In this document: one piece after another, positions 24,644-32,000 of the stretch
How positions within the stretch are numbered: position 1 is the first letter of the stretch
Layout: each line of letters begins with the position of its first letter
NCBI RefSeq assembly: GCF_000025705.1
Contig: NC_013959.1
Location: forward strand, 827,063 to 859,062
Source of the DNA: Sideroxydans lithotrophicus ES-1
GTDB taxonomy: Bacteria; Pseudomonadota; Gammaproteobacteria; Burkholderiales; Gallionellaceae
Direction of reading: 5' to 3'
Length of the DNA stretch: 32,000 bases
The notes under the pieces: model-generated
The model's database searches: none
What the model was told of the DNA's origin: nothing
Seen by the model: only the letters and a program-made list of their open reading frames with translations
Program-made: the position numbers and the translations under genes

Positions 24644-24876
24644 CATGGTCCGTTCCCGCGCTGTTGTTCTGAAAACCATGCAGTCGGTACAGCTGCCGCA
24701 ACGCGGACTGGACGAGACGGATTCAGCGCCCGATCGATTGAACAAACCTCAGCCAGGAGGTGTCTGACTGCTGGGAATCAAAACGGATTTCACCATAAAT
24801 CGGGGTTGCGCCCGGCCGGTCGTCGCAAACGCATACCAACAAGACGCCGGTTCGCCCCACCTTGGTAAGGCCGCCT

Positions 24877-26169
24877 ATGGACACTTCTTACGCAATCTAT
24901 CTGCTGTTCTTTGCCTTCGTGCTGCTCTTCTACCTGCGCAGCCGACTCAAGGGCGAGAGTTCGTCCGTCGAAGTGCTCAATGAATGCCTCGAAGCTGGAT
25001 TGACGGAACCCTCGACCCTGCATCCCGAGATCGACCCCAGGCTTTGTCTGGGGGCAGGCAGCTGTGTCGCAGCCTGCCCGGAAGGTGCGCTCGGCATGAT
25101 CAATGGCAAAGGAACGCTGATCAACCCGACCGTCTGCATCGGGCATGGTGCGTGCGAGGCGGCCTGTCCGCACGATGCGATCAAGCTGGTCTTCGGCACT
25201 GAACGACGCGGCATGGATATTCCGCAAGTCGATCCGCATTTCGAGACCAATGTGCCCGGCATCTTCATTGCGGGCGAACTCGGCGGCATGGGGTTGCTGC
25301 ACAAGGCGGCAGGGCAAGGCAGCCGGGCAATTGAATATATCGCCGGACTCAAGGGCAACAAGAATCCCTACGATGTGGTCATCATCGGCGCGGGACCGGC
25401 CGGCCTGGCGGCGACGCTGGGAGCGATCGAACGCAAGTTACGTTATGTCACCATCGAGCAGGAAACTTCACTCGGCGGAGCCATGTTTAAGTACCCGCGC
25501 CACAAGATCGTCATGACTTCTCCTGCGGAATTGCCAATCGTCGGAAAAATGCAATTCAAGGAAGTGAGCAAGGAAGCACTGCTGGAGTTCTGGCACGGCG
25601 TCATTGCGCAGACCGGCATGCAGCTGAATTACGAAGAGCGCATGGAGGACATCACCAAAACCGACAATGGCTTTGTCGTCAAAACCACCAAAGGCTCATA
25701 TGAAACCCGTGCCGTGTTGCTTGCCATAGGACGTCGCGGTACACCGCGCAAACTGGGCGTGCCCGGCGAAGAGCTGCCGAAAGTTGTGTACCATCTGGTC
25801 GATCCAGAACAATATTGCAACCAGCATGTCATGGTTGTGGGCGGTGGTGACAGCGCGCTCGAGGCCGCGATCGCCATTGCCGAACAACCGGGAACAACCG
25901 TCACGCTCTCCTATCGGAGCGAGGCATTCGGGCGCGGCAAAACGAAGAATCGCGAACGCTTGAAGGAGATGACGGACAAGGGGCGGATCACGGTACTGCT
26001 GAAATCGAACGTGAAACAGGTCAGCAAAGGCAAGATCCTGCTGGAACAGGAAAGCAGGATGATCGAGATGCCCAACGATGCGGTCATCGTGTGCGCAGGC
26101 GGCATCCTGCCCACACCGTTCCTCAAGCAGATCGGCGTGATGGTCGAAACGAAATTCGGCACCGCATAG
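24877..26169 (+). CDS. Membrane-anchored ferredoxin-domain / TrxR-like FAD-NAD(P)H oxidoreductase fusion
   Basis: The ORF begins at 24862; the ATG at 24877 (MDTSYAIYLLFFAFVLLFYL, TM helix) is also possible. Two Fe-S motifs: CLGAGSCVAACP and CIGHGACEAACP. FAD Rossmann motif DVVIIGAGPAGLAA; NAD(P)H Rossmann motif VMVVGGGDSALEAA. There is no redox CxxC between them. Confidence 0.75.
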   Translation: MDTSYAIYLLFFAFVLLFYLRSRLKGESSSVEVLNECLEAGLTEPSTLHPEIDPRLCLGAGSCVAACPEGALGMINGKGTLINPTVCIGHGACEAACPHDAIKLVFGTERRGMDIPQVDPHFETNVPGIFIAGELGGMGLLHKAAGQGSRAIEYIAGLKGNKNPYDVVIIGAGPAGLAATLGAIERKLRYVTIEQETSLGGAMFKYPRHKIVMTSPAELPIVGKMQFKEVSKEALLEFWHGVIAQTGMQLNYEERMEDITKTDNGFVVKTTKGSYETRAVLLAIGRRGTPRKLGVPGEELPKVVYHLVDPEQYCNQHVMVVGGGDSALEAAIAIAEQPGTTVTLSYRSEAFGRGKTKNRERLKEMTDKGRITVLLKSNVKQVSKGKILLEQESRMIEMPNDAVIVCAGGILPTPFLKQIGVMVETKFGTA

Positions 26170-30188: not shown

Positions 30189-31772
30189 TCATTCATCGCG
30201 CGTGTTTAACACGCCGACTCTTATCTCTTTCCAATCGTTGCCTATGTGGCAACGCTCACAATGTTCGCCGAAGCTGCCGTTATGCACGTCGTCCTTGTCG
30301 TGACAGCTGTCGCAAGCAGTGGGTGCAACCACTTTCTTTTCCATCGGTGCGGAGTGGCAGACGTAACATTTGCCTGCAATTTCCTTGTGCGGTCCATCGA
30401 GCTTGAAACTGGTCTTGTCGTGGTCGAAATCCCAGGCCTTCCAGTCGCGCGCGTTGTGGCAGGTCTCGCATTCCGTCCCCAGCTTGCGCTTGTGCACATC
30501 GTCCTTGGTGTGGCACGACCGGCAATCCGTCTTGACCCCCTTGAACATTGGCGTGGCATGGCATTTCTTGCACGCCACCAGCAAGTGACGCCCGAGCAGC
30601 GGGAAAGTCGACATCAAGCTGTGGTCGAAAGTGGTCTTCGTCCACGCAATCTCGCTATGACAAGATTCGCATTTATCTCCCTCCTGGCCTTTGTGCTTGT
30701 CGTCCTTTTTGTGGCATGCGTCGCATTTGGCGGGCAATTTCTGCTTGTACAGGTCGCCCGTATGGCAACTCACGCATTTCGTCTGTCTGTGTTTTCCCAG
30801 TAGCGGGTATTTGGTTTCCTTGTCGTGATCGAAAATAATTTCCTTCCAGTTGCGTACGGTGTGACAGGATTCGCACTTCGTTCCGAATTTGCCCTTGTGC
30901 GCCTTGATTCCCTCTTTTCTGTGGCACGCGTTGCACAGCGTCGGTGTTTTCTTGAACTTGTCGTTGCTGTGGCATTTTTCGCACTTCACGTCCCGGTGTT
31001 TGCCCAGTAGCGGGAATTTGGTCTTGTCGTGATCGAAGCGGATTTCCTTCCAGCTCTTTTCGATGTGACACGATTCGCATTTCGGCCCCAATTTTCCCTT
31101 GTGCTTGTCGTTCTTCTTGTGACATGAGTTGCATGATGTCGGCGTCTCCTTGAACTTGTCGTTGTTGTGGCATTTTTCGCACTTCACGTCCCGGTGTTTG
31201 CCCAGTAGCGGAAACCTGGTCTTGTCGTGGTCGAACTGGATGTCTTTCCAGCTCTTGTCGATGTGACATGATTCGCATTTGGATCCCAATTTTCCTTTGT
31301 GTTTGTCATCCTTCTTGTGGCACGCGTCGCAACTGGTGGGCGCATCCCGGTATTTCTTTCCCGCCTTGTGGCAGCCGGTACATTTCACTTTCGGGTTGAG
31401 GTGGGCCCCCTTCAGCGGATAGTCGGTTTGGTCGTGATCGAACTTGCCACGGTCAAACTCGGCAATCTTTGCATCGCGACCCTTATGATCCGTATGGCAT
31501 TCCCTGCACTGTTTCGAGGGGTCCAACCGTCCGTGATAACCGCGTTTTTCGTCCAGATCCTTGTGTATCTCCTTGTGGCAATCGGCACACAGTGCCGACT
31601 GGGCTGCCTTGTCGAATTTCTTGTGGCACTTCTCGCAATCATCTTCCAGCTTCGCATGGCCTTCGATGACGTTGCCCGGCATCACCATAATGTCCGCTTG
31701 TGTTTTCATGGGCAGCGCCATCAGGGCGCTGCCCAGGACGATCGAGCGCAGGATCGCCGTTATCTGGTACAT
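30189..31772 (-). CDS. Multihaem c-type cytochrome, 21 CxxCH, polymer of seven cytochrome c7-like trihaem modules (Lys/Asp/His-rich)
   Basis: The maximal ORF extends to 31817 (GTG). I prefer the ATG at 31772 (MYQITAILRSIVLGSALMALPMKTQA signal peptide), just after the upstream stop at 31780. CxxCH at aa 61, 77, 104, 146, 163, 181, 213, 229, 247, 279, 295, 315, 348, 365, 383, 416, 432, 450, 484, 502 and 520 (numbered from 31817). Recurrent FDHDKTxFPLLGKH distal-His motif. Confidence 0.9.
   Translation of the reverse strand: MYQITAILRSIVLGSALMALPMKTQADIMVMPGNVIEGHAKLEDDCEKCHKKFDKAAQSALCADCHKEIHKDLDEKRGYHGRLDPSKQCRECHTDHKGRDAKIAEFDRGKFDHDQTDYPLKGAHLNPKVKCTGCHKAGKKYRDAPTSCDACHKKDDKHKGKLGSKCESCHIDKSWKDIQFDHDKTRFPLLGKHRDVKCEKCHNNDKFKETPTSCNSCHKKNDKHKGKLGPKCESCHIEKSWKEIRFDHDKTKFPLLGKHRDVKCEKCHSNDKFKKTPTLCNACHRKEGIKAHKGKFGTKCESCHTVRNWKEIIFDHDKETKYPLLGKHRQTKCVSCHTGDLYKQKLPAKCDACHKKDDKHKGQEGDKCESCHSEIAWTKTTFDHSLMSTFPLLGRHLLVACKKCHATPMFKGVKTDCRSCHTKDDVHKRKLGTECETCHNARDWKAWDFDHDKTSFKLDGPHKEIAGKCYVCHSAPMEKKVVAPTACDSCHDKDDVHNGSFGEHCERCHIGNDWKEIRVGVLNTRDE
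30912..31307 (-). repeat. Two near-identical in-frame 198-bp (66-aa) tandem units inside the 21-haem gene
   Basis: gtggcatttttcgcacttcacgtcccggtgtttgcccagtagcgg occurs at 30969 and at 31167 (198 bp apart). The units encode DKHKGKLGSKCESCHIDKSWKDIQFDHDKTRFPLLGKHRDVKCEKCHNNDKFKETPTSCNSCH and DKHKGKLGPKCESCHIEKSWKEIRFDHDKTKFPLLGKHRDVKCEKCHSNDKFKKTPTLCNACH. Confidence 0.9.
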
Positions 31773-31779
31773 CCCGACT

Positions 31780-32000
31780 TCAATAGGCATGTACCGCGTA
31801 AACATGGTAGAGCGCACTGAATACCATCATGTAAACCAGCGGAATGTGGAAGATGTGCCACCACGAAAACATGCGCTCGTAGGTTCCGAATTGCGCCACA
31901 TTCCGCATTGCCTTGAGATAGGACTCGATTGATTCTCGATAATCGTGCACTTTTTTTTCCATGTCCGCGCGTTGCGCCTCGCTGTAGTGTTGGGTCTTGG
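31780..32000 (-). CDS. Membrane protein, C-terminal fragment (N-terminus beyond the window); first gene of the cytochrome cluster
   Basis: The frame stays open upstream of the listed Met to the window edge (KTQHYSEAQRAD-MEKKVHDY...). It ends with a His-rich hydrophobic helix, MFSWWHIFHIPLVYMMVFSALYHVYAVHAY. The stop lies 7 nt before the preferred start of the 21-haem gene. Confidence 0.55.
   Translation of the reverse strand, partial: KTQHYSEAQRADMEKKVHDYRESIESYLKAMRNVAQFGTYERMFSWWHIFHIPLVYMMVFSALYHVYAVHAY

Follow-up and report, generated by a model that had tools for sequence, protein, structure and literature searches.

The window, the whole stretch of 32,000 nucleotides that we analysed, comes from Sideroxydans lithotrophicus ES-1 (NCBI RefSeq assembly GCF_000025705.1, contig NC_013959.1, positions 827,063 to 859,062 of the forward strand), and positions below are counted from its first letter unless another genome or region is named. 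Close to the end of the window lies a gene for a cytochrome with 21 haem-binding sites, which is the subject of this analysis. It is one of four adjacent genes on the minus strand, in the order inner-membrane protein, 21-haem cytochrome, 18-haem cytochrome and porin (Table 1). The gaps along this cluster are -38 to +7, 42 and at least 64 nucleotides, with the stop codon of the inner-membrane protein overlapping or abutting the start of the cytochrome. An orthologue recovered from two independent metagenome assemblies stands in the same four-gene order.

This arrangement is that of PCC3, a porin-cytochrome complex that He et al. (2017; PMC5566968) define as an inner-membrane protein, a periplasmic and an extracellular cytochrome, and a porin. 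He et al. describe the inner-membrane protein as having about 300 residues, five transmembrane helices, two WX3HX13H motifs and an SGXXG motif, and the periplasmic cytochrome as having a median of 21 haems and a low residue-to-haem ratio. The inner-membrane protein at our locus has 299 residues, with WX3HX13H at residues 82 and 274 and SGTFG at residue 131 by motif search, five hydrophobic segments in a crude hydropathy scan, and no match to a Pfam family. Four co-oriented adjacent genes, the inner-membrane motifs and a high haem count, three of the features by which PCC3 is recognised, are present. A second PCC3 cluster lies outside the window in the same genome (1434000-1444500, plus strand) and matches Slit_1446-1449; it encodes a membrane protein of 301 residues that carries the WX3HX13H motif twice, a 24-haem cytochrome (600-residue frame), a 960-residue frame with 28 CxxCH and one CX3-4CH, and an 862-residue porin that ends in F.

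For ES-1, 17/21 sites have been published for the cluster Slit_0867-0870 and 24/28 for the cluster Slit_1446-1449 (cited with Zhou et al.). The phrase "the 21/18 heme complex of S. lithotrophicus ES-1" comes from Hoover et al. (2023; PMC10734462), who report the periplasmic PCC3 subunit in Gallionellaceae with 21, 24 and 27 haems (MMseqs2 cluster 20). Because the cluster order, the haem counts, the second cluster and the inner-membrane motifs match these publications, we take the gene to be Slit_0869, or indistinguishable from it, and with good confidence the periplasmic multihaem cytochrome of the PCC3 complex. The 21-haem gene and its cluster have already been published, the system itself is still hypothetical, and no new system is presented here. 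The module-level detail given below (constant ends, a core of module-5-type units, a shifted c7 frame and the ligand order) was not found in the available portions of the PCC3 literature.

The longest open reading frame runs to 542 residues from a GTG at 31817. Two further starts are an ATG at 31790, where an identical database protein begins (P0002, 533 residues, 100% identity), and the next ATG at 31772, which the preliminary description of this DNA took as the gene boundary. The frame holds exactly 21 CxxCH motifs, and a motif count found no CX3CH or CX4CH in it. As that description had stated, the 21 sites fall into seven regular triplets, with spacings of 16-18 and then 18-27 residues inside a triplet and 32-42 residues from one triplet to the next. 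This periodic repeat of haem sites is real and far beyond chance. The signal peptide, as read from the sequence, contains no lipobox cysteine.

Table 1. Features of the 21-haem cytochrome gene and its neighbours, in window coordinates.
Feature	Position	Strand	Basis and remarks
21-haem periplasmic PCC3 cytochrome gene (probable), matches Slit_0869	30189..31817	-	open reading frame, motif count, 100% identical database protein, published haem counts
Probable Sec signal peptide (MYQITAILRSIVLGSALMALPMKTQA; end …ALPMKTQA)	31692..31772	-	read from the sequence; cleavage site inferred by eye
Module 1, divergent N-terminal trihaem part, without FDH	31464..31691	-	CxxCH at residues 61, 77, 104; module alignment
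Module 2 (FDH, GAH, three CxxCH, DKH)	31263..31463	-	position constant across relatives
Module 3	31065..31262	-	5' part 31140-31262, 89% DNA identity to the 5' part of module 4
Module 4	30858..31064	-	5' part 30942-31064, partner in the probable gene-conversion tract; 3-residue insert (EGIKA)
Module 5, single copy here	30654..30857	-	type multiplied in 24-, 27- and 30-haem relatives; identity matrices of sister proteins
Module 6	30450..30653	-	position constant across relatives
Module 7, C-terminal	30192..30449	-	closing WKEIR hairpin motif without FDH after it
Best-scoring c7-like unit, shifted frame	30504..30710	-	PF14522 31.4 bits, profile positions 6-67 of 67
Four equivalent shifted-frame units	31113-31316, 30915-31118, 30705-30920, 30294-30509	-	PF14522 26.9, 24.1, 26.8, 29.4 bits
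Extracellular cytochrome (predicted), matches Slit_0868, 524 residues	28572..30146	-	17 CxxCH and one CX4CH (CASAGCH)
Predicted outer-membrane porin, matches Slit_0867, 765 residues	26210..28507	-	C-terminal ...GLRWDF; weak TPR-like match at about residues 216-284
Inner-membrane protein, 3' end, matches Slit_0870	31780..32000	-	whole gene 299 residues, to 32679 in window numbering, past the window edge

The mature protein has 42 Cys, every one of them inside a CxxCH motif, together with 44 His, 5 Met and 16.6% Lys, and carries one haem per 23.8 residues. In an alignment of 94 homologues, all CxxCH motifs are invariant, as are three further His per module, which lie in FDH, GxH and DxH; in module 1 the three are His54, His95 and His111. 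The candidate distal ligands are thus 21 His outside the motifs for 21 haems, and none of the five Met stands at a repeated or conserved position of that alignment. With 21 CxxCH, 21 other invariant His and no conserved Met, all 21 haems are therefore probably bis-histidine, with the ligands assigned from their order along the chain.

To map the repeats, we cut the protein 27 residues ahead of the first Cys of each triplet, in the frame of the preliminary description. Modules 1 to 7 are then 85, 67, 66, 69, 68, 68 and 86 residues long, so that the internal modules measure 66-69 residues and the end modules 85-86. Modules 2-7 open with W-K-x-I-x-F-D-H…(F/Y)-P-L-x-G-x-H. The FDH...(F/Y)PL.G.H motif that had been described ahead of every module is thus present in six; module 1 has just ...VIEGH. 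Module 1 weakly resembles the Shewanella small tetrahaem cytochrome (NCBIfam CctA, residues 27-120, E=2.3e-4, below the cut-off). Across relatives, modules 1-2 and 6-7 form constant ends of the chain, and modules 3, 4 and 5 make up a repeated core between them.

The kinship of this repeat is with the class III cytochromes and cytochrome c7. The Pfam Cytochrome_C7 profile, PF14522, matches the whole protein with 91.1 bits (E=4e-26), and PF14537 and PF02085 match it as well. A reading as a heptamer of canonical PpcA-like c7 domains, one per triplet, and longer kin of the GSU1996 family draws on these matches, on the three haems and three extra His per repeat, and on a hairpin followed by F-x-H that recalls the c7 N-terminus. 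We cut modules 2-6 in three frames and scored each piece alone against PF14522, for which the cut-off is 24.8 bits. The frame of one triplet preceded by FDH and GxH gave 22.0, 19.0, 16.0, 21.0 and 19.9 bits, mostly over part of the profile, and no unit of the five passed. Moved one haem later, so that a unit runs from DxH and the third CxxCH through the hairpin, FDH and GxH to the first two CxxCH of the next triplet, the scores were 26.9, 24.1, 26.8, 31.4 and 29.4 bits over profile positions 5/6-67 of 67, and four of five passed. A third frame, starting past the first CxxCH, gave 16.4-17.9 bits over a partial profile. The best-scoring unit comprises DKH and the third CxxCH of module 5, the hairpin, FDH, GRH, and the first two CxxCH of module 6.

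A c7-like unit therefore appears to straddle the module boundary first drawn, one haem later along the chain; we chose this shifted frame because of the PF14522 profile scores only. The haem-to-ligand balance is 21:21 in both frames, so that counts at the ends cannot separate them. The shifted frame is also the one in which a profile of the di-module, compared with PDB sequences, aligned GSU1996 (3ov0, 3ouq) and domain C of that protein (1rwj), the GSU1996 segment "FDL…YTMLDMEKGKSC" sitting over "FDH…FKLLGKHKEVKC" of the 21-haem family. Read in the shifted frame, the protein would hold six c7-like units, flanked by two haems on the N-terminal side and by one on the C-terminal side.

The order of the ligands sets the repeat apart from canonical c7, in which the distal His17, His20 and His47 serve haems I, III and IV, and His31, His54/55 and His68/69 are proximal (PMC11787507). 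Written with H for an extra His and C for a CxxCH site, the repeat reads H,H,C,C,H,C in the frame first drawn and H,C,H,H,C,C in the shifted one, compared with H,H,C,H,C,C in canonical c7, and no rotation of H,H,C,C,H,C gives the canonical order. PpcA, the Geobacter c7 of 71 residues with haems I, III and IV, has likewise three bis-His haems per about 70 residues and a hairpin followed by F-x-H, but it carries His17 and His20 before its first site and His47 between the first and the second, whereas the shifted unit of Slit_0869 has one His before the first site and two after it. The spacings in the shifted frame are c7-like (His-7/8-CxxCH, His-4/5-CxxCH, and the last two sites 14-16 residues apart), with no candidate His at the c7 His17 position and with the His of FDH as an extra one. 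FDH may, then, supply the distal ligand of the equivalent of c7 haem I.

The NCBIfam model TIGR04257, for the c(7)-type trihaem "nanowire" domain, does not match the 21-haem protein at E<=0.01. A search of PDB sequences with the 21-haem protein alone returned nothing at E<=0.01; with the family and di-module profiles the matches were weak and all to class III cytochromes (E range 3.7e-4 to 6.4e-3), the best being basic c3 (2bq4, E=3.7e-4), and the others nine-haem cytochromes, GSU1996 and a 16-haem cytochrome. That GSU1996 (3ov0, E=0.0038) is among them speaks for a heptamer of canonical c7 domains, but basic c3 and the nine-haem cytochromes match better. In the frame such a heptamer calls for, every module falls under the Pfam cut-off, mostly with a partial profile, while the shifted frame passes; H-H-C-C-H-C is not the c7 order, TIGR04257 is silent, module 1 lacks FDH, and the His-Met haem of GSU1996 domains would need a conserved Met, of which the protein has none. 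We therefore regard the canonical heptamer as unlikely. Of the chain of c7-type modules first proposed, the tandem trihaem repeats and the kinship to class III and c7 (91 bits with PF14522) stand, and the frame and the ligand order do not. The proposed layout of PpcA-like c7 fails on the same two points, and membership in the Geobacter dodecahaem family on the lack of a TIGR04257 match and of a repeated Met.

Modules 3 and 4 are more alike than other pairs of modules. Tandem Repeats Finder reports a period of 198 bp at 30789-31331, with 2.7 copies and 82% matches, and the two modules share 82% of their nucleotides and 79% of their residues, against 39-62% of residues for other module pairs. 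The similarity is uneven: a 5' part of about 120 nucleotides, which includes a 47-nucleotide exact run, is about 89% identical, and the remainder is about 72% identical with a 9-nucleotide indel. They had been called nearly identical at the DNA level, a description that the 82% overall does not sustain.

These figures had also been taken to mean a very recent tandem duplication at a locus of ongoing expansion, with copy numbers that vary between strains. The 198-bp period fits such an event, as does the fact that modules 3 and 4 are each other's nearest kin within the protein, with 79% of residues and 82% of nucleotides shared and the 47-nucleotide exact stretch. However, both modules were found in every relative examined, and in sister species the same-position comparisons (88-90% for module 3 to 3, 80-91% for module 4 to 4) exceed the cross-position value of about 72%. 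The module 4 insert ahead of the DxH His, EGIKA here, is common to orthologues, where it reads DGDKA or DDEKA. Across the family, the best identity between adjacent modules has a median of 72% and reaches 97% in some nine-module proteins, so that 79% is ordinary. Moreover, the high identity is confined to the 5' part, the orthologue is alike independently, and copy-number differences between sister proteins map elsewhere, to module-5-type units. Modules 3 and 4 are, then, distinct conserved positions, and a very recent duplication is highly improbable.

What the two modules present instead is a mosaic. Within the window, the 5' parts of modules 3 and 4 share 89.4% of nucleotides and 78% of third codon positions, and within the closest orthologue 84.6% and 80%; between the window and the orthologue genome the same parts share 70.7-73.2% and 54-61%. 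The 3' parts at the same position share 75.0% and 77.8% between the two genomes, compared with 72.2% between modules 3 and 4 of the window. The 5' parts thus group by genome, the 3' parts weakly by position, and the module-4 insert by position. Because of this mosaic, gene conversion between the 5' halves of adjacent old repeats is the likely source of the raised similarity. An assembly artefact at the repeat is unlikely because the sequence is a finished single contig (3,003,656 bp) and because the orthologue, recovered independently in two metagenome assemblies, agrees with the window in having seven modules and in the length of each.

Copy number does vary, at another place in the chain. 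Among the 120 closest homologues, the CxxCH count is 21 in 3 (including the window's own), 24 in 72, 27 in 25, and 30, 33, 36 or 39 in the others; it is a multiple of three in 118 of the 120. A homologue is present in 42 of 81 genomes of the same bacterial family, and the open reading frames recovered from same-family loci have 21, 24, 27 or 30 haems. A search without a length limit returned 1159 cluster representatives at E<=1e-30. Distant relatives with the same trihaem repeat (32/16/25 spacing) carry 94, 81, 79 and 78 CxxCH per polypeptide, the longest (P0121) having 2321 residues and 94 CxxCH. Extracellular PCC3 cytochromes with up to 85 sites are reported by He et al. (PMC5566968). Seven modules, or 21 haems, are the minimum of this family of cytochromes in our comparison; the suggestion that the protein is one of the longest haem wires is thus reversed by relatives of 24-39 haems and of up to 94.

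A tree of 32 proteins, computed on the constant ends (modules 1-2 and the final two modules), requires at least 10 changes of haem number. The 21-haem proteins are scattered over it, and the clade of the window's own genus holds 21-, 24- and 27-haem forms. In identity matrices of sister proteins, every extra module of the longer protein is a match, at 78-84%, to module 5 of the shorter one. We relied on these matrices and on the constant-ends tree because a tree of 62 modules over 72 columns was poorly resolved in its core. The family plan is therefore a fixed head, modules 3 and 4 as a pair, a variable number (one to several) of units of the module-5 type, and a fixed tail; the chain changes length in steps of three haems as such units are gained or lost. 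The copy-number variation that had been predicted is therefore borne out among species, and it resides in module-5-type units.

By its sequence, the cytochrome carries 21 c-type haems and is exported with a Sec signal peptide. For the function, synteny and published models suggest the following. The cytochrome would form a haem rod that carries electrons across the periplasm, one end meeting the 18-haem cytochrome located in the outer-membrane porin or beyond it and the other meeting the inner-membrane protein, which probably binds two b-type haems. We place a periplasmic rod between the putative dihaem membrane protein and the porin-held cytochrome because of the synteny and the models of He et al. 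and Hoover et al. By analogy we estimate the length of the rod at about 17-21 nm. Haems in MtrA are spaced at about 0.8 nm each, which gives the lower bound of 17 nm. The analogy for the rod length is GSU1996, with 12 haems in 12 nm according to a title cited in PMC10138318.

Taken with the module map, this allows a tentative proposal, which we put forward as a possibility and not as the expected outcome, of a length-adjustable haem rod. The fixed head (modules 1-2) and the fixed tail (the last two modules) would dock the membrane partners, duplication and loss of module 5 would set the trihaem steps, gene conversion would homogenise the repeats, and the length would be tuned to the width of the periplasm or to the partner cytochrome. 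The repeat itself would be an undescribed variant of c7, with the distal His of haem I behind the first site and with units interlocked across their boundaries.

A number of observations weigh against the main reading, a periplasmic PCC3 cytochrome that forms a haem rod. The full-length AlphaFold model is moderate (predicted local distance difference test, pLDDT, 76.4; predicted template modelling score 0.38) and does not fix the shape or the length. A Foldseek search of the PDB with this model gave no match at E<=0.001, and even up to E<=10 no c7 entry appeared; the top match, to the Shewanella small tetrahaem cytochrome 1m1p, presumably reflects module 1 and is not significant (E=2). Multihaem proteins modelled without their haems show little secondary structure. 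We do not read the Foldseek result as a negative because haem-free models carry so little of it. One shifted-frame unit modelled alone (71 residues, 30501-30713, 69 orthologous rows) has a pLDDT of 50, compared with about 80 for the same unit inside the full-length model; deprived of haems or of adjoining units, a repeat may not be a domain in its own right. The pairing of His with haem follows from sequence order alone, and the case for gene conversion comes from short tracts (about 123 nucleotides) in two genomes. A 2025 paper still calls PCC3 "functionally unverified". In ES-1, expression of the cluster is low, and lower on Fe(II) than on thiosulfate; the second PCC3 cluster is likewise down on Fe(II), Slit_0867-0870 being the less expressed of the two. 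Most of the proteins of the cluster escaped detection in proteomes from dissolved Fe(II) and from magnetite.

These expression data fit a protein that serves mainly as a periplasmic electron store, a capacitor as for GSU1996, or that passes electrons outward to extracellular acceptors, neither of which is Fe(II) uptake. The high haem density, at about 24 residues per haem, would suit a store; storage has been raised in the literature, the direction of Mto/Mtr is described as not fixed (PMC10734462), and PCC3 occurs in many bacteria not known as iron oxidisers (PMC5566968). That the gene stays linked to those of a porin, an extracellular cytochrome and a putative dihaem membrane protein favours a through-conduit over a free store, although a store and a conduit are compatible in one protein. 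We consider a chiefly storing or outward role rather unlikely.

The proposed trans-periplasmic rod can be set beside three known systems. GSU1996 of Geobacter sulfurreducens (3ov0, 3ouq, 3oue, 1rwj) likewise has tandem class III trihaem units on one periplasmic polypeptide and a linear haem chain. It has 12 haems in four c7-type domains compared with the 21 haems of Slit_0869, and one His-Met haem per domain (PMC10138318), whereas the haems of the 21-haem protein are apparently all bis-His. The Slit_0869 unit also has one distal His after, not before, its first CxxCH, and its gene is grouped with genes for a porin, for an extracellular cytochrome and for a membrane protein. MtrA and MtoA resemble it as haem wires on the periplasmic side, encoded beside their porin, and MtoAB is also present in ES-1. 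They differ in belonging to an unrelated sequence family (pentahaem-type units, DmsE family), in having 10 haems and in sitting inside the porin. On solid Fe(II) minerals MtoAB is induced, in contrast to the Slit_0867-0870 proteins of PCC3, which were largely not detected. The high-molecular-weight 16-haem (1z1n) and nine-haem (19hc/1duw/1ofw) cytochromes of Desulfovibrio and basic cytochrome c3 (2bq4) are the best PDB profile matches and are class III polymers as well, but they consist of tetrahaem c3-like units with CX4CH, are compact and not strictly periodic, and act in complexes of sulfate respiration.

PCC3 is a widespread candidate route for electrons between the outside and the inner membrane in iron oxidisers, many other Proteobacteria and Nitrospirota. 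If the rod is real, a single protein that bridges the periplasm would differ from Mtr/Mto, which rely on diffusing carriers. The module map indicates which modules are constant and which sets the length, and the probable boundaries of the c7-like units are useful for the design of expression constructs, as in the dissection of GSU1996. The ES-1 copy, as the minimal seven-module form, is a convenient target for structure determination.

A few observations concern relatives and neighbours. A 39-haem homologue of 13 modules occurs in Nitrospira sp. GCA_013140455.1 (L005, 7001-9817; also L006). No obvious porin or WX3HX13H protein was found near it, the neighbours being DUF6502, DUF5666 and an NHL-repeat gene, and the repeat cytochrome may be used in a different complex in Nitrospirota. 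The 18-haem partner cytochrome at our locus is rich in Thr, Ala and Gly; its C-terminal half has a three-fold repeat of its own, with sites spaced 32/24/32, and the protein matches doubled-CXXCH and DmsE/OmcA decahaem models, both below their cut-offs. The weak TPR is the sole Pfam match of the 765-residue porin, and the porin of the orthologue matches OMP_b-brl below threshold (E=5e-4). About 290 N-terminal residues of the 765-residue porin are not barrel-like and contain the TPR match, as they do in the orthologue (match at 191-265); a non-barrel N-terminus with TPR is unusual among cytochrome porins such as MtrB/MtoB. Just beyond the porin, between the rnf genes and PCC3, the plus strand of the window (24862-26169) encodes a fusion protein with two domains, a 2x[4Fe-4S]-type ferredoxin and a pyridine-nucleotide-disulphide oxidoreductase.

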